DNA of 64,000 nucleotides from assembly GCF_963676685.1 (NCBI RefSeq), contig NC_092344.1, forward strand, positions 88,412,001-88,476,000, written 5' to 3'. This document shows, piece after piece, positions 1,001 through 32,252 of this stretch. The DNA is from Mytilus edulis. Lineage: Eukaryota. The first letter of the stretch is position 1. The number at the start of each line of letters is the position of its first letter. Both the position numbers and the translations under genes were made by a program. The notes beneath the pieces are model-generated. The model did not search any database. It was not told the DNA's origin and worked only from the letters and a program-made list of their open reading frames with translations.

Positions 1001-2439
1001 TTTTTGTTGTTGTTGTTGCTGTTGTTTTTTTTTTTTTAATGTTTATCATACTTAACAGTATAAAACAGACTTCGTAGTTCCAGATTCAATGGAGACATCA
1101 TAATAATGAACTAGGTCATGAACTGCCAATGCTCATACCTCATATACTACAAAGTGACAATTTTTAAAATTGTGTGCTTTCGAAGCGCTTTAATGGATTT
1201 AATTCATCACGGACGCTTAACCCCTAACATTTAAAAATCCAGGATTGGGTATATCTGTAGAAGCTGCAAGAGCTGTATGACTATTAGGATCCTAAAAATG
1301 ATATCCAAATTTATCAGAGGTCAGTTTTGCTTGGGGGAGTGGAAACCTAAAATAATGTCACAATTACTAGTAGTTAAACACCCCCGTAGTAGTACTTGCA
1401 TATGCATTATGAACAATTAAGTGATACTTAAATATGATGACATAGAAATCATACTATATACTGTATAGATAATCAAACGAAAGGTTAACAATGATATGGC
1501 GTCCAGGTTACGTAATTTTGAGGAGGAAGAACTGTTAATCTTTTGAACTCGTATCAAGATCTTAAAATTGATCGGAACATGATACCATGTTTTCTTTAAA
1601 GAAGGCGTCATATATTCATTCCACTTTGTTTGTTAATTTATCATATTATTTATATACGGAAATTGTACAATTTATACTATATGAGCATGCAATTTTGAAT
1701 TCCAGAAAGTAATTTGTAGATTTTTTCATGTTTTATGTAAATTGTTGTAACACTTTTAGATTATCTACCGAATTGGTTTGACCTTGCAGAAAATTTTGTA
1801 AAGCCTTTTTTTATTGACCAATGCCATTGAATAATGAAGTCTATCGAAAAATTAAAAAAAAACACTTTATAACTTTGTTGCGTCCAAACCGCTTTTCAAG
1901 ATGTTTAGTTTTGTTTAACTTTATTATAATCAATGTAAGAACCAATAAAAACCATATTAAAATATCTTACTTCTTTGAGTATAAGATTAATGCGTTTGTA
2001 TGAATCGTATTTAAAACGTTGTATCTATGATGGAATTTTAAACAGTTTTAAGCCATTTGTCGCAACGAAATCTCTTCCTCAATTTTTCACTAGCTATTGT
2101 CTAAGGCGTCAGACGACGCGATTTTGTCGAATTCGGTTACAATTGATGTACATTTGTAGGCGTCTATTAATTGTGTTACTATGCCGGTAACATTACATCG
2201 TGGTAATCTTTCCTGGAATTATTGTTTTTAGAATGACCAAAGTTCTTCTAAAATCTTTTATTGCAAAGGGTTTTTAGAACAAAACGTTTTAACATTAATA
2301 CCAAAATCATGAATACATTCAGTTAGTGGATATATGTTTTGAAAATAACTGTCAGCGTCTATTGTGGTGCTATACGTTTATTTTGTAGAGTGGTATTGCA
2401 AAGATAACTGTTTCTATACAAAGTTTCCCATGTCTATAG

Positions 2440-2775
2440 ATATAAGAATATGTGGTATCAGCGCCAAATAGACAACTCCCCATCAAAGTCACAATTTGTA
2501 AAAGTAAACCATTATAGGTCAAAGAACGGTCTTCAACACTGGGCTTTGGCTCACAATGAATAGCATGATATATAAATGGCTCCCAAATTACTTGTGTAAA
2601 ACCATTCACACAGGAAAACCAACGATCTTATCTATAATAAAAAAAAAACAAGAAACGAGAAGCACTTATGAACCACATCAACAAACAACAACCATTGAGC
2701 ATCAGGTTCCTGAATTATGAAAGGTGCAAATAAATGCGTTTTAATAGGTAGCAACCTTTATCCTTACCTAAAACA
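2440..2775 (-). mobile_element. SINE-like family 1 copy
   Basis: Aligns with 9062-9410 (GTAAACCATTATAGGTCAAAG..CGGTCTTCAACAC). Confidence 0.65.
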
Positions 2776-3616
2776 AACATCATAAAATTCAGGATCACTT
2801 TAAATAGATATAAAGGCCAGACAAGCTTTATTTAAAACTAATATTTGTACAAAAGCTACATTCTTGATTCATCCTACACCATTCTTCTTATGGGCAGTAC
2901 ATTAATTCACTTAAAGAACATTTTGTTCATTTGGAACTTTTGGAAATTTTCATGGAAACAAAATTTCGATCCAAACGAAATTTTGAAGTCGCTCATAGGA
3001 AGTTAGGATTTTTCATGGATAAAGCTTTTAGGATTTTTTCAATGGGAATTATCATTATTTTCTCCCGGGAATCTTATATTTCATTGAAAAATACAAATGA
3101 CATTCTGAAGTGACCTTGGTGACAGGTGTCATTATTTTTGTATAACTTTTTTCTTTCCTTGTTTTGATAAAAATATTGCCATTTCGAATTTAATGTTACC
3201 TAAAATTGGTATAATCCTACATTCTCCAGACTCGTTCGACGCATTCTATATATGTTTGTTCATTATTTTTACTTGTTTTGCAAGCTGCTTCTGCTAGATT
3301 GTCATTTATCTAATGTTATTTCGTTTTTTCGTCCCGTTAGTTATTTGGCTACAAAAAGGTGTATGTAATGTTGTAACGATTATCGCTATTTTACGAAATT
3401 TACCTTTGATCTTACTGACTGATCATTTCCTTTCTCAGCACAGTAAAAGTGATTTGAAAAACTATCGCTAGAAACTAAGGCGCACGTTCCCGTTGTTAAT
3501 GAAATTATAGGTAAACAGTGGTAAACAGATTATCATAGTACCGGCTCAAACGAGAAAATCAATCACGTTGGGCTGACCAACGATAATCTATAATTATCAG
3601 ATGTGAATAAAATAGA

Positions 3617-6985: not shown

Positions 6986-7076
6986 TCATCGTAATCCATC
7001 GTGTAGCCTTCGTAATCCATAGTGAAGCCTTCGTAATCCATCGTGTAGCCTTCGTGATCCATCGTGTAGTCTTCGG
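6986..7076. repeat. 21-bp tandem repeat (~4 copies) in the transposon subterminal region
   Basis: Unit CTTCGTAATCCATCGTGTAGC; explains the YTMDYEG repeats of ORF 6850..7227. Confidence 0.85.
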
Positions 7077-11023: not shown

Positions 11024-11313
11024 CACGCTGAAAGACGATAGTTTGACGCTGAAGTACGACTATTTGATGCTGAATTACGATTGTTTGACGCTGATCTACT
11101 ATTGTGTGACGCTTGAATAAGTGTTTGACGCTTAAGGACCATTGTGTGACGCTGAAGTAAGATTATTTGACGATAAAATACGATTGTATTATGCTGGTGT
11201 ACTGTTGTGTGATGCTTAAGTAAGAGTGGTTGACGCTAAAGGACGGTTGGTTGACGCTGAAGTACGGTTGTTTGACACTGAAATATGATTGTGTAACGCG
11301 GAAGTACGATTGT
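11024..11313. repeat. 21-bp minisatellite (~13-14 copies)
   Basis: Consensus TTTGACGCTGAAGTACGATTG repeated in tandem with divergence. Confidence 0.85.
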
Positions 11314-19009: not shown

Positions 19010-21920
19010 CTAACATGTCATACTGTGGTTGATCTTTGTTTTCTTAGTCTGTATGGTCTATTGGTGTTTGATCTTTTTTTCTTAGTTTAACATCATTTCC
19101 AATTAATGTTTGATCTATGGTATGTAAGTCTTAAAAGTCCTATTGATGTGTTATCTTCGTTGTCTTAGTATATATGTCATATTGATGTTTGGTCTATGGT
19201 ACCTCAGTCTTAAATGTCCTACTGACATATGGTCTTCTTTCAAAGGGTTCGGATTGCTTATTCTTTAGTTTTCTATGTTGTGTCATGTGTACTATTGTTT
19301 ATCTGTTTATCTTTTTCATTTAAGCCATTGCGTTTGCAGTTTATTTTCGATTTATGAGTTTGACTGTCCCTCTGGTATCTTTCGTACCTCTCTTATAAGT
19401 CTATATTGATGTTCGATCTTCGTTGTCTTATTCTTTATTTCCTTTTGATGTTTGGTCTATGGTCTCTAAGTCTAATATGTCCTATTGGTGTTTTGTCTAT
19501 GGTATTTTAATCTTAAATGTCCTATTGGTGTTTGATCTTACTGTTGTCTGAGTCTTACATGTCATATTAATGTTTGATCTATGGTGTCTTAGTCTTTCAT
19601 TTTATATAGATGTTTGATCTTTGATGTTGCCGTCTTACATTGCCTACCCATGCTCGATAATTTTGTCTCATTTTTCTCATTGGTATTTGATCTTTCTTTT
19701 CGCGGTCTTAACTTTTTTATTGATGTTTTCACTTAGTTGTTTTGGTTTAAATTATCTATCGATATTTGATCTTTGTTATTTTGGACTTACATGTTCTGTT
19801 GATGCTTGATCTTTGTTAACCCGGTCTCAAATTACCCTTTGATGTTTTAACTTAGTTGTTGTTTTCTTGCACTTCATATTAATTTTTGATATATGTTGTC
19901 TTGTCTTGCATGTCCTATTAGTGTTTCATCGTTGTTCTCGCGGTCTTACATGCTCTAATGATGTTTGATCTTTGATGTCTATGTCTTACATTGCCTATAT
20001 ATTAGTAGATGATTAATCTTTGTTGTTTTGTTGTTTTGTTTTACATATTCTATTAATGTTTTAACTTAGTTGTTGTTGTCTTTGTTGTTGTTGCTGTCTT
20101 ACGTTGCTTGTAAATGTTTAACTTTATTATTTTTCGAACTTACCTTGATATTTGATAATATTTATACATCGATCCAAAATGTCATATTAATGTTTGCTTT
20201 TTGTTGTCTCTGTTTTTGATCTTGATCTTTCTCGTATACATGATTGATCTTTGTTTCTTCAGTCTTACGCGCCACATTGCTGTATGCTACTTCTTGTTTT
20301 AGTCTTACACGTCTAATCAATGATTGATCTTTGTTATCTCAATCCTACTGATGTTTTATCTGTGTTGTCTTAGTCTGCTTGCCTATTGATGTTTGATCTT
20401 TGTTGTTGTGGTCTAAATGTCCTACTATTATGATTGTACTTTGTTGTTGTGGTCTTTCATATCTTATTGATGATTGATCGTGGTTCTTGTGGTCTTTCAG
20501 TAATGTACTGTCTCCGTGTTACATGTATTATCAATGTTGGAAGTATTTAATTTATTATAAATATTAAATGTCAAATTAATATTTGATCATGATTGCATTT
20601 CATGCCTGCATGTTCAGTTTTGTTTTCTCAGTCTAACGTGTGTTATTGATGTTTGATTTTTGTTGTCTTAGTTTTTCGTGACCTTTTTATTATGTTTTAT
20701 CTTTGTTGCCCTTTTCCTTTGTCTAGCATATCTTTTGTGTTGTCGTCTTACATAACCTATCAATGTCTTGTATTTCCAATTGATATGTAGTCATTGTTGT
20801 CTTAGTATAACATCTCCGAATAATGTTTGATCTTTGTGGTTGCGATCTTCAATGCCACATCAATGTTTCATTTGTGTTGTATCGGTCTTGTAATAGCAAC
20901 TGATTTTTTTTTATCTTTGATGCCATAGTTTTTGCATGTCTTATCATTGTTTGATATTTAGTGTTCTTGTCTTTCATGTCATATTATAATTTGATCTTTA
21001 TTGTTGTGGTCCTAATTGTGTTTGATCCTTTTTGTTGAGGTCTTAATTCTCATATAAATCTGATTGATCTTTTTTGTCTGAATCTTACATGTTGCCTTAG
21101 TCTAACATGTTCTCTTGATTTTTGATATTTGTTGGCTCGATCTAAAACTATCAAATAGATGTTTGATCTATGTTGTCTTAGTTTAACAAGTCCTGTTTAT
21201 GTTTGGTGTTAGTTTTTGTAGTCTTACATGTCCTTTTTATGTCTGATCATTATATTCATATTCGTACATGTCCTGTTTACGTTTGAAATGTTTTCATAGG
21301 TCTGCATGTCCTGTTTATGTATGATTTTTGTTTTTATAGTCTAACATGGCTAGTTTATGTTTGATCTATGCTTTCATAGTCTTGCATTTTCTATTGATTC
21401 TTGATATTTGTTGATTCGATCTGACATTATCCTATGTATGCGTGATCTCTGATGTTTTAGTCTTATATGTCTATTGATGTTTTGGTATTAATACATGTCG
21501 TTTTGATGGTTTTTCTCTCCTTTCTTAGTAATACATGTCCTATAGATGTTTGATCTTTGTTTCGGTCCTACATAGCAAATCGAAGCTCGATATTTGGTTT
21601 GTCGGTTTTACATGCCCTATTGGTATATTGTTGTATTAGTCTTACATGCTCTACTGGCGTTTGACCTTTGTTGTCCAAGTCTTATAGCAGCACTAATCTT
21701 TGTTGTATCAGTCTTCAAACTGATGTTAAGACTTTGTTCGTCTAAAATAAGATATTCAGTTGTTGTTCGATACCTGTTTTGTATTTCAAGAAATATTTCA
21801 TAACTATCCGATCTTCGTTTTTTTCAACAATGCAAGATGTCATCGATTTCTAATTATGTTGCCTCGGTCTTGTAATTAACTATTTTAAACGTTTGATCTT
21901 TGTTGTATTGAGCTCGCAAT
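19010..21920. repeat. Degenerate 40-bp minisatellite array, left part
   Basis: Consensus ~TATTGATGTTTGATCTTTGTTGTCTTAGTCTTACATGTCC; for example CCTATTGGTG recurs at 19481 and 19521. Confidence 0.85.
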
Positions 21921-28946: not shown

Positions 28947-29234
28947 TTATAAAAACGACAATTTCTCAATGTTTTGTCTCAATTTGTATCGGATCTGCAC
29001 TTCTTTTGTTGGTGGAAGGATTTCATGTCCATAATAATTAATATCGGGTTGAGTTGATTCACCATCACACAGTTCCATGTCAAAAGAATACATGCTGGAT
29101 AACAAAAACCACTTTGACTGTACAATTGCGTATTTTTTCCCTGGACACAATGCACCAAATGCCATAACTGGATTTTTTACTTCTTTACCATATTTGTAAA
29201 ACTTAGCATCAACGAATCTGTCGTATTTGTATTC
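28947..29234 (-). CDS. Cytochrome P450, CYP7/CYP8 clan, terminal coding exon with heme-ligand Cys
   Basis: Acceptor TTTCAG|. Reads EYKYDRFVDAKFYKYGKEVKNPVMAFGALCPGKKYAIVQSKW...GHEILPP...LSFL*, with the meander motif (YDRF) and heme Cys (codon 426). Spliced CDS is 80+929+179+288=1476 nt. Confidence 0.95.
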   Translation of the reverse strand, partial: EYKYDRFVDAKFYKYGKEVKNPVMAFGALCPGKKYAIVQSKWFLLSSMYSFDMELCDGESTQPDINYYGHEILPPTKEVQIRYKLRQNIEKLSFL

Positions 29235-29527: not shown

Positions 29528-29706
29528 ATCTGGGTTTTCGAAAATTTCTGGGTCTTTGTGCATTGCTGGTGGGTACATTGCTACTTTATCTCCTTTCCTG
29601 ACTGTAAAGTTCTGACCATTCTCCATCTCAAATTCTGTGTCTTCTAATACAGATCGTACCACAAACACACCACTAGATACTCTCAGAGTTTCGTTTACGA
29701 CACTGT
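29528..29706 (-). CDS. Cytochrome P450, CYP7/CYP8 clan, coding exon 3
   Basis: Acceptor CTACAG|. Reads (D)SVVNETLRVSSG...RKGDKVAMYPPAMHKDPEIFENPD, with the K-helix ExxR and HxDPEIF motifs. Donor GTAAGT at 29527; 179 nt, phases fit. Confidence 0.95.
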
Positions 29707-30064: not shown

Positions 30065-30993
30065 CTAAAACTTTTAAAGAATCAATTTCTTCCATGCTGA
30101 AAACAATTTCTTCTTCGTCGTCGTCCATCTCTGCTCGTTTACATCGGACCACCTCGTCAATTTCCTTTCGTAATCCTTCTAGTGCTTCTCTGTTTTCCAA
30201 AAGTTTGTAAAGGCTCCAGAAGGCCAGTCGAAATGTATTGTAGTTAACGTGTAAATAAACCAAGTTGTGTCCGATAATGTCTTGTTCTGTTTGGTTATGC
30301 TCTAACATGAAATTGGTAGAAAATCGGAGGTATTCGGACAGATCGTCTCTTTGTAACAACTCTGCTGATGTTGGTTGATTACACAGCCCTTCTAATGCCT
30401 TCACAGCCTTTGGAAACAATTTAACAGGCATGCCTAACCACAAAAAGTTGAAATACTTGTGGAAAGTATCGAAATTTTTGTAAACGCTCAATGGTTTAAA
30501 TCTTGCATCACTCGCATCTCCTTTTCCGAAAATGGTGTAGAACAGTGAGGCGAATAATGTTTGAGAGTTGAATGAGCGAAGTCCTGCTGTTTTCCATTCA
30601 TCTGTGTGTTCACCTGTAGAAGACTGAGTAACTTCCGTGAATGTTTCGTTGAGATAGTTCGAAAATTGAGCCATTCCTTTGTTAAGATATGGTCCTCTCA
30701 CAGTTTTTCCGGCTTCCTTCAACATTTTACGCGCATTCACCAACTCGAAACTGAATACATTGTGGTTCACTTGCTTTTGGATCTTATCAAAGTCAAAATT
30801 TCTCTCTTTGACAAATTTTTCATACGAATGGGGATCCAATATAACGGTCATGTGTTGATTGAAAAGTCGAATAGTGAATATATCTCCGATTTTTTTCTGC
30901 GTAGAATGTAGAAATTTAACTGCGTTCTTTGAAAATTCTTCACCATTGCCCCAAAACCAATGTCCTGTTGGAATAGGAGGTTCATTTTCCCTT
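30065..30993 (-). CDS. Cytochrome P450, CYP7/CYP8 clan, coding exon 2
   Basis: Acceptor TTTCAG| at 30994. Reads (R)RENEPPIPTGHWFWGNG...GDIFTIRLFNQHMTVILDPH...FDTFHKYFNFLWLGMP...NTFRLAFW...LKVL, with the Pro-rich hinge and CYP7/8-type signatures. Donor G|GTAAGT at 30064; 929 nt. Confidence 0.95.
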
Positions 30994-31226: not shown

Positions 31227-31306
31227 CTTTTCCTAAATAAGAATTTAAAGTAAGCGGCTACACACAGTGCCACTGCTATGGCCAAGTAAACTGTTAACGC
31301 AACCAT
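31227..31306 (-). CDS. Cytochrome P450, CYP7/CYP8 clan (CYP7A1/CYP8B1-like), coding exon 1 (membrane anchor)
   Basis: ATG at 31306 gives MVALTVYLAIAVALCVAAYFKFLFRK(R), a hydrophobic anchor followed by basic residues. 80 nt, ending at donor AG|GTAAGA (phase 2); splices in frame to the next exon. Confidence 0.9.
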
Positions 31307-31394
31307 CGTGATTCTTTGGCTTTATTCTATTGCTGTTTTCTTCTTCTTGTTTTTCTAGATTGATCAGTTTCCTGAGATTCTTTAATATTGTAGT
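31307..31394 (-). other. 5' UTR part of the ATG-containing exon of the P450 gene
   Basis: Strong acceptor TTTCTTTTGTTTTTAG| at 31395; no upstream ATG in this segment. Confidence 0.6.
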
Positions 31395-32123
31395 CTAAAA
31401 ACAAAAGAAACCAAATGTTATTAATGATATTATTTGACACCGTTCTTTTATTAGATTAGCTATAACATTTTCGTTAATGAAAGTGTTGTAATTGACATAT
31501 AAAATTGATATAAAAATCGTACTTTGTTAATCGACAAGTATCCAGACTTAAATATCATTATGATATCAATGAAAACGAAAATCTAATGAAACAATAGAAA
31601 AAAGTTGTTTGTAAAAACACTAAGCGACAGGGGATTTCCTCAACTTACTATTTATAAACTATAGCTGTTGCTTTGTTTAGTGTAATTTAAACAGGACGCG
31701 TTTCGTCATTAATTAAAAATAGCAACTTCTCATTCATAAAATAAGAATGAACTTAATCATACGGATTAAAATAAACCAAACCATGTGCATTGACGGTGAT
31801 TTCCCTGTCTATTGTAATGATCAATGTTTTTTTGTGAATGACATATCTTATCTAAATAATTTCCTTAAGGTTAGCAAAGATTTATTGAATCATATAATCG
31901 ATTGTCTATAACCGAAGTAATTGATGTCCTTATAACTTCCCACCTACTATTGGTTAAACACAGCTTTAACTGGCATTATGCAATGGTTAAACAAAGCTTC
32001 AATTTAAAACAAACAATCCCATCTGATAATGCAATTTTATAATTAAAAAAAATTGCTGAATAGTGATTATCGAAATGCATTTTTGAAACCAAAAACTATA
32101 GTTTAAGAATAAGTTTAACTTAC

Positions 32124-32252
32124 CTTATAATGTTGGCTGCTGAAACAATCTTTATAAATATTCCTTGTACTATTAAAATATTCACTTATAACTAAAGTCA
32201 CTGGTTAGTTATTCCAAACAAAGTGTTTCTCTTACTTTTATCGTAGTATTCT
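32124..32252 (-). other. Predicted non-coding first exon of the P450 gene
   Basis: Consensus donor AAG|GTAAGT at 32123. Starts ~30 nt downstream of a TATA box; contains no ATG. TSS is approximate. Confidence 0.55.

Follow-up and report, generated by a model that had tools for sequence, protein, structure and literature searches.

No part of cytochrome P450s is more conserved than the cysteine loop; in this superfamily, identity above 40% is the threshold for a family. Loop length is altered in CYP74 enzymes, which carry an insertion there and have no acid-alcohol pair, and the same I-helix Asn serves peroxide cleavage in CYP74 and in prostacyclin synthase (PGIS). Oxygen activation is usually abolished when the I-helix loses its kink and small kink residue. 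A distal His occurs in the bacterial StaP. A loop deletion has been reported for metazoan CYP20s, one residue long in the Aurelia row, in the accessible part of PMC8110760, so that short P450 loops are rare, not unique. The closest described system is CYP3067A1 of Capitella teleta, named and placed in clan 7 by Dejong and Wilson in 2014 (PMC4229089); the available sections of that paper call the loop gap 'peculiar', give no function for the protein and express doubt about function.

The window analysed here, a 64-kb stretch of Mytilus edulis DNA, carries on its minus strand a P450 gene that is intact and expressed. Splicing of four coding exons (31306-31227, 30993-30065, 29706-29528 and 29234-28947) across introns of 233, 358 and 293 nt, all GT..AG, yields a 491-aa protein with a single terminal stop, and the 3'UTR extends beyond 28600. 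The raw-read RNA run X24 contributed 201 reads, in which one 5'UTR intron and all three coding introns are spliced; RNA contigs of X10 and X12 agree with this splicing and contain no indel, while the raw RNA runs X21, X22 and X23 contributed just 2, 0 and 0 reads, too few to bear on the loop. The 729-nt 5'UTR intron and the non-coding first exon (31394-32241, minus strand) were absent from the original prediction for this DNA. The features of the gene are as follows, counts referring to the family and canonical sets described below.

32124-32241, minus strand: non-coding first exon; 5' end not fixed, the piece 32124-32241 being a contig piece in X10; the joint 31394/32124 is spliced in 4/4 runs
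31227-31394, minus strand: exon 2, with 5'UTR, ATG at 31306, 80 coding nt and the N-terminal membrane anchor (helix 2-23 in the AF2 model)
30065-30993, minus strand: exon 3 (929 nt), with the B', C, F, G and I helices, from splicing and RNA
30216-30269, minus strand: I-helix motif H269-W286, one residue below clan-7 relatives, with His275, Asn279 and Arg/Lys282
30251-30249, minus strand: His275 codon, within the I-helix motif
29528-29706, minus strand: exon 4 (179 nt), with K-helix E342-x-x-R345 and beta1-4 Arg354, from splicing, RNA and alignment
28947-29234, minus strand: coding part of exon 5, with meander, Cys loop, L helix, beta4 loop and stop, from splicing and RNA
29199-29222, minus strand: shortened meander D401-F408, with a span of 8 in 38/44 family proteins against mostly 12-14 in canonical relatives
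29139-29159, minus strand: short heme-binding loop F422-G-A-L-C426-P-G, Cys codon 29147-29145
29022-29030, minus strand: family-specific G465-H466-E467 of the beta4 loop (canonical G-L-G), with H in 41/44 and E in 43/44 family proteins, and G at 467 in 85/90 canonical relatives

Elsewhere in the window, none of 114 other open frames had a Pfam match above cut-off, and degenerate tandem arrays of 21-nt and 40-nt units were seen at 6989-7075, 11025-11313, 19391-19641 and 21159-21412.

The original prediction had read a heme-binding loop three residues short, FGALCPG, in an intact, in-frame last exon, and this is confirmed at 29159-29139 (minus strand). Three residues separate Phe422 from Cys426 instead of the usual six, and alignments to the PDB entries of CYP7A1, CYP8B1 (human) and prostacyclin synthase (human and zebrafish) place a three-residue gap between FG(A) and LC. 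Depth of X24 RNA is about 30 in the bin containing the loop, with no insertions or deletions, so the deletion stands up to the check by RNA reads that had been proposed; DNA contigs of X15 (possibly the source of this DNA) and X16 also contain the loop without indel. Homologues were sought with the exon 30066-30992, which does not contain the loop, as query; among 120 examined out of 154 matches, 37 reach the C-terminus and the other 83 are fragments without the loop region. All 37 show FG[SAT][LI]C[PT]G in the loop alignment that the prediction had called for. Taken together, the RNA reads without indel and the short loop in 37/37 full-length homologues rule out an assembly error or a private deletion. 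Alternative splicing that restores the loop was likewise rejected, as the RNA and DNA runs examined hold no such joint or insertion.

In later searches the window protein was represented by P0001, 'cytochrome P450 7A1-like [Mytilus trossulus]', with which it is identical at 488/491 residues and whose match to Pfam PF00067 (131 bits, cut-off 22.8) places it in the P450 superfamily. Named homologues came from bivalves, gastropods, Octopus, annelids, nemerteans and Lingula; a search with the C-terminal part added a snail and a leech, and a profile search of all 50%-identity representatives, of which the best 150 of 10,106 matches were used, retrieved divergent members including two from the flatworm Macrostomum (the named members are spiralian). 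Among the homologues listed, some gastropods and Mya have two family copies. The resulting family set comprised 44 full-length proteins, namely the 37, the two from the C-terminal search and five divergent ones, and was compared with 90 canonical relatives selected from 143 representatives by a length of 400-600 and a six-residue loop; the loop count in these relatives is circular because they were chosen for that loop, a circularity that does not touch the other comparisons. From bivalves to flatworms the short loop is invariant (44/44): where FxxGxxxCxG has six residues from F to C, every family protein has three, and this pattern is a signature, not a definition, of the P450 superfamily. 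The axial Cys426 and the residues E342, R345 (ExxR) and R354 are each present in 44/44. Among the 143 new representatives the distance from aromatic residue to Cys is 3 or 6, and the few pattern matches of 11 contain a six-residue loop. Nearest clusters in the ESM Atlas carry chordate CYP7/CYP39-type names and added nothing beyond the other searches.

Divergent family proteins, P0159, P0161, P0154 and the Macrostomum pair P0157 and P0160, keep the short loop, His275 and Asn279 with changed neighbouring residues; a second helix His and the sequence CIG in place of CPG are found in P0159 and P0161. A fast-evolving 'CYP7A1' of Aplysia, P0162, has a short loop ending in CPA and no K-helix ExxR segment in its record, and is possibly mis-predicted or a degenerate paralogue.

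By sequence, the mussel gene is a member of CYP3067. Its protein is 49.8% identical to Capitella CYP3067A1, above the family threshold, and has the gaps of the heme loop and of the I-helix by which CYP3067 is recognised; the Capitella member falls with the other proteins in one clade (100/100). The Capitella homologue in our set, P0083, has ESFR at 344, FKYDR at 400, AFGS..LCPG at 424 and NT at 286, which are the positions tabulated for CYP3067A1 in the accessible part of PMC4229089. An invertebrate subfamily had been predicted, and the shared homologues and separate clade establish a conserved family; what had been overlooked is that this family already has a name, CYP3067A1, and that its gap was noted in 2014 (PMC4229089).

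A second change, likewise overlooked, accompanies the short loop and is a stronger functional clue than the loop alone: a deletion in the I-helix, with an invariant His275 and a lost Trp. In a MAFFT alignment the span H269-W286 is 18 residues in 44/44 family proteins and 19 in 89/90 canonical relatives (one row gapped). His275 is present in all 44, where canonical relatives have Trp (85/90) then Ala (80/90); position 282 is Arg/Lys in 44/44 against Pro in 74/90, and Tyr occupies the acid position in 41/44. Asn279 (43/44 in the family) is shared with 89/90 canonical relatives. Among all P450-side proteins fetched, the His motif occurs in 64/77 with a short loop and 0/132 with a canonical loop. 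The register of His275 depends on the method, as it falls on Ala285 by MAFFT and on Trp284 by HHalign, and gap scores vary little from 275 to 279 (31.3-33.2); under either register, the kink position is aligned with His or Val. Twenty-nine columns, mostly polar, are fixed at 90% or more in the family and found in at most 10% of canonical relatives. Most of them fall in the B' (Q101, N103, N105), F (H205, N209, W212), I (N270, H275, V276, N277, Y278, R282) and beta4 (H466, E467) regions; we assume from general P450 topology that these are substrate-recognition sites. Canonical relatives have a B'-C stretch longer by about 5 residues.

An AF2 model of the family (37 rows, no heme) has a mean pLDDT of 90 and an unbroken I-helix from 263 to 293, with pLDDT below 50 only at 424-427, which is drawn as an extension of helix L. 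In a control, the amphioxus CYP7-like P0170 modelled from 37 canonical rows, the I-helix is broken at 282-283 and the loop has a pLDDT of 93-97. The contrast between the two helices predicts that the kink is lost in the family, and leaves the short loop without a confident model; the comparison is of one AF2 model with one control, and the training data contain canonical loops. The best fold match is CYP7A1 (Z 40.7, rmsd 2.6, 441 aligned), with PGIS at Z 40.1 and CYP8B1 at Z 39.2, and CYP74 allene oxide synthase at Z 23.5 only. CYP7A1 is also the best PDB sequence match (E 3.6e-60; allene oxide synthase E 2e-9).

Trees were built from 386 columns, with the I-helix and meander/loop columns left out; five animal rows were named and the rest assigned by clustering, and CYP39 and other clans were left out. 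The family is a single clade in every tree (1.0; 100/100). In a 32-row tree without long branches, made by dropping 12 of 44 rows (seven long-branched 'other', four family and one animal), the sister group of the family is animal CYP7/8 (98/96); the family's stem measures 1.62 substitutions/site, and its inner branches are short. With long branches kept, in two 44-row trees, the family joins long-branched non-animal rows, weakly supported (90 SH-aLRT; 84/89). We take this FastTree and 44-row IQ-TREE placement to be long-branch attraction, given the 32-row tree and an AU test in which forcing the family with animal CYP7/8 in the 44-row set was 12 lnL better (p-AU 0.77), the group having been defined after the tree was seen. 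The family groups with CYP7/CYP8, as a member of clan 7 should, in the 32-row tree, and this grouping is not rejected in the 44-row set; on the aligned columns, a very long branch leads to the family as sister group of vertebrate CYP7/CYP8. A long stem with short inner branches agrees with a change of function and strong constraint after it, and a single such change in an early spiralian CYP7/8 is likely. The 80-nt first coding exon (31227-31306) and the phase-1 and phase-0 introns flanking the 179-nt exon (29528-29706) presumably resemble introns 1, 4 and 5 of human CYP7A1, a likeness that would favour descent from CYP7.

The mussel genome holds at least one family copy. A fish CYP7A1 query retrieved no other CYP7/8-like gene, and searches with the gene's own exon, the whole protein and fish CYP7A1 (all lower bounds) found no canonical CYP7/8 paralogue. 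One candidate for such a paralogue, L006, was set aside because it reads as a distant P450; this locus (1444-2979, minus strand) has a canonical loop and an intronless frame of 511 codons with an AGFETV I-helix, CYP1-like by eye.

The databases label family members CYP7A1, 12-alpha-hydroxylase or prostacyclin synthase. The original prediction doubted the automatic label of cholesterol 7-alpha-hydroxylase, and the homologue set, alignment, tree and CYP7A1 A285 mutants (PMC10502461, available in part) suggest that 'CYP7A1' is likely wrong. The family is 22-32% identical to the 90 canonical relatives, fish CYP7A1 and frog CYP7B1 among them, short of the more than 40% of a CYP7A, and in place of the CYP7A I-helix Trp-Ala-Ser-Gln-Ala-Asn, with its small kink residue, it has H-V-N-Y-N, one residue short. 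In the accessible part of PMC10502461, CYP7A1 lost its activity as A285V, A285T and A285R, and with His or Val at the kink position we count this in favour of an altered, non-CYP7A1 activity.

A further suggestion, that the short loop meant no dependence on a reductase, is so far unsupported. The reductase-free CYP8A and CYP74 lack the loop Phe (PMC11900375, in the part available), and the family keeps it in 41/44; the fold is far nearer CYP7/8 (Z about 40) than CYP74 (Z 23.5). Basic residues are enriched in the family over canonical relatives at R115 and K116 (86% against 16% and 4%), K123 (88% against 44%) and position 430 (97% against 11%), and are less frequent at 429 (79% against 97%). 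Those of the C-helix and the start of the L-helix we take to face the reductase, by general P450 topology, although R115/K116 could bind heme propionates instead, and the C-helix alignment is uncertain because of the shorter B'-C stretch. The Phe argument is weak, since CYP8B1 has Trp there and yet is a monooxygenase. The isomerase pattern of an I-helix Asn with no acid-alcohol pair is present (N279 in 43/44, Tyr at the acid position in 41/44), and it is not diagnostic because hydroxylases share the Asn. A P450 reductase gene is present in the mussel genome. With the kept Phe and the basic C- and L-helices the sequence leans against reductase independence, which is possible. Of the original prediction as a whole, the conserved invertebrate family and the doubtful CYP7A1 label have stood, and reductase independence has so far not.

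An enzyme with a different heme chemistry is a likely description of the family. Our favoured account, which we put at a little under an even chance, is a reductase-fed, membrane-anchored heme-thiolate enzyme, in which a distal His would help to oxidise a specific polar endogenous lipid or oxidised sterol, rather than a cholesterol 7-alpha-hydroxylase. We count the invariant Cys, ExxR and beta1-4 Arg and the CYP7A1-like fold in favour of a heme-thiolate enzyme. Heme would be held by Cys426, with Phe422 one turn away and touching it by way of a tight i/i+4 turn where a beta-bulge is usual. The straight I-helix would put His275 and Asn279 on the distal heme side, where His275 could serve as acid-base catalyst or displaceable ligand in place of the kink and water chain. 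Electrons would enter from P450 reductase via the basic C-helix/L-helix face, and the substrate may be a defined polar lipid or oxidised sterol, a class at which we guess.

The predicted loss of the kink, together with the six-coordinate, inactive BM3 A264H (PMC11900375, available in part), favours other readings over this one. A reductase-independent isomerase or lyase like CYP8A1 or CYP74, acting on an endoperoxide or hydroperoxide with Asn279 and His275 aiding O-O cleavage, is the idea of the original prediction and a possible but unlikely reading. It would suit the lost kink, the missing acid-alcohol pair, the Asn kept in 43/44 and the altered proximal loop and meander, and prostacyclin synthase is within the sister group with a tied fold score (Z 40.1 against 40.7). 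Yet the Asn is also in 89/90 canonical relatives, hydroxylases among them, the basic residues of the C- and L-helices are strongly conserved, and CYP74 matches at Z 23.5 only and has its loop lengthened by insertion; the loop Phe, absent from CYP8 and CYP74 (PMC11900375, in part), is kept. Rather improbable, in our judgement, is a natural Cys/His six-coordinate heme protein with His275 on the iron, a redox, gas or lipid sensor or electron carrier instead of an oxygenase. His275, in 44/44, stands four residues before Asn279, the spacing of Ala285 and Asn289 in CYP7A1 and, as we assume, of Ala264 and Thr268 in BM3; the helix is predicted unbroken, and a basic proximal face suits electron exchange. 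HHalign and the upstream match G-H-x-L-x-F/Y-L instead set the His on the Trp284 'ceiling', which we take to be too far from the iron to ligate it, and invariant residues all round the pocket better suit a bound substrate than a bare redox site. An engineered precedent for such ligation is BM3 A264H, whose His binds the iron to give a six-coordinate, inactive protein (PMC11900375, in the accessible part).

The annotation taken at face value, an ordinary reductase-dependent 7-alpha-hydroxylase of sterols or oxysterols that tolerates the deletions, has a small chance in spite of CYP7A1 being the best sequence (E 3.6e-60) and fold match and of the gene being the only CYP7/8-like one found with a fish CYP7A1 query (a lower bound). 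Against it stand the loss of Trp (85/90 relatives), the replaced kink Ala (80/90), the changes of Pro282 to Arg/Lys and of G-L-G to G-H-E, the 22-32% identity to canonical relatives, the very long stem, and the intolerance of CYP7A1 for Val at 285 (PMC10502461, in the part available). A heme-free or catalytically dead P450 fold, kept as a lipid-binding or scaffold protein, is highly improbable: the loop pLDDT below 50 at 424-427, against 93-97 in the canonical control, and the doubt about function in 2014 (PMC4229089, available in part) speak for it, and the Cys, Gly423, ExxR and beta1-4 Arg, each invariant in 44/44 from bivalves to flatworms, speak against it. A bolder proposal, to which we give about the same low probability as to the isomerase or lyase, is that a His sits at the iron in this natural P450-fold heme protein, either as a ligand together with Cys or as a distal His of peroxidase type, and that its cysteine pocket does without the beta-bulge. 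Such a protein would sense, or process by non-oxygenase chemistry, a signal molecule that spiralians have in common, and in them would have replaced CYP7/CYP8.

New here is that the short loop always occurs with a one-residue I-helix deletion, an invariant His275, loss of the CYP7/8 Trp and a polar invariant pocket. In the literature searched, subscription papers lying outside it, the name CYP3067 was found in PMC4229089 alone, the loop motif strings gave only unrelated peptide work, and neither the family-wide fixation, the coupled I-helix deletion with invariant His nor the sister position to CYP7/8 was found; fixation, invariant His and pocket changes are absent from the examined parts of PMC4229089, and PMC11703216 and PMC11988029 gave nothing on the family. 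That the gap was noticed, and the family given its name, in 2014 makes the result less surprising. A loop deletion kept since the split of molluscs, annelids and flatworms, next to an I-helix that bears a His and is predicted to lack its kink, offers a natural experiment in how oxygen is activated and how the Cys pocket works, and the true substrate could uncover a new spiralian lipid signal. Mollusc transcriptome papers take such labels as cholesterol metabolism (PMC7773633 and PMC10571815, both available in part). In PMC7773633 (accessible part), LPS induces a 'cholesterol 7-alpha-monooxygenase' transcript in Mytilus hemocytes, which may be the mussel CYP3067 gene; if so, an immune-lipid role is hinted at.

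Compared with known systems, Capitella CYP3067A1 is alike in having the same loop gap and an I-helix gap, which the 2014 paper drew, for a single species, as four residues (PMC4229089, in the part available) against one in the present alignments. Vertebrate CYP7A1 and CYP7B1 have in common with the mussel protein the I-helix Asn, ExxR, CPG and the FYKxG meander motif, and identity to CYP7A1 is about 30% in structural alignment. The family differs from them by a loop 3 residues shorter, an I-helix 1 shorter, a meander about 5-6 shorter and a B'-C stretch about 5 shorter, by His/Val for Trp/Ala, and by a polar pocket. CYP8A1 and CYP8B1 belong to the same sister clade, with tied fold scores and the I-helix Asn, but have a full six-residue loop of their own starting with Trp and keep the I-helix Trp-Ala. 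CYP74 allene oxide synthase also has an altered loop length, whereas the family's is a deletion, and is distant (E 2e-9, Z 23.5). BM3 A264H has a His possibly at the equivalent I-helix position, in a variant that is engineered and inactive (PMC11900375, available in part).
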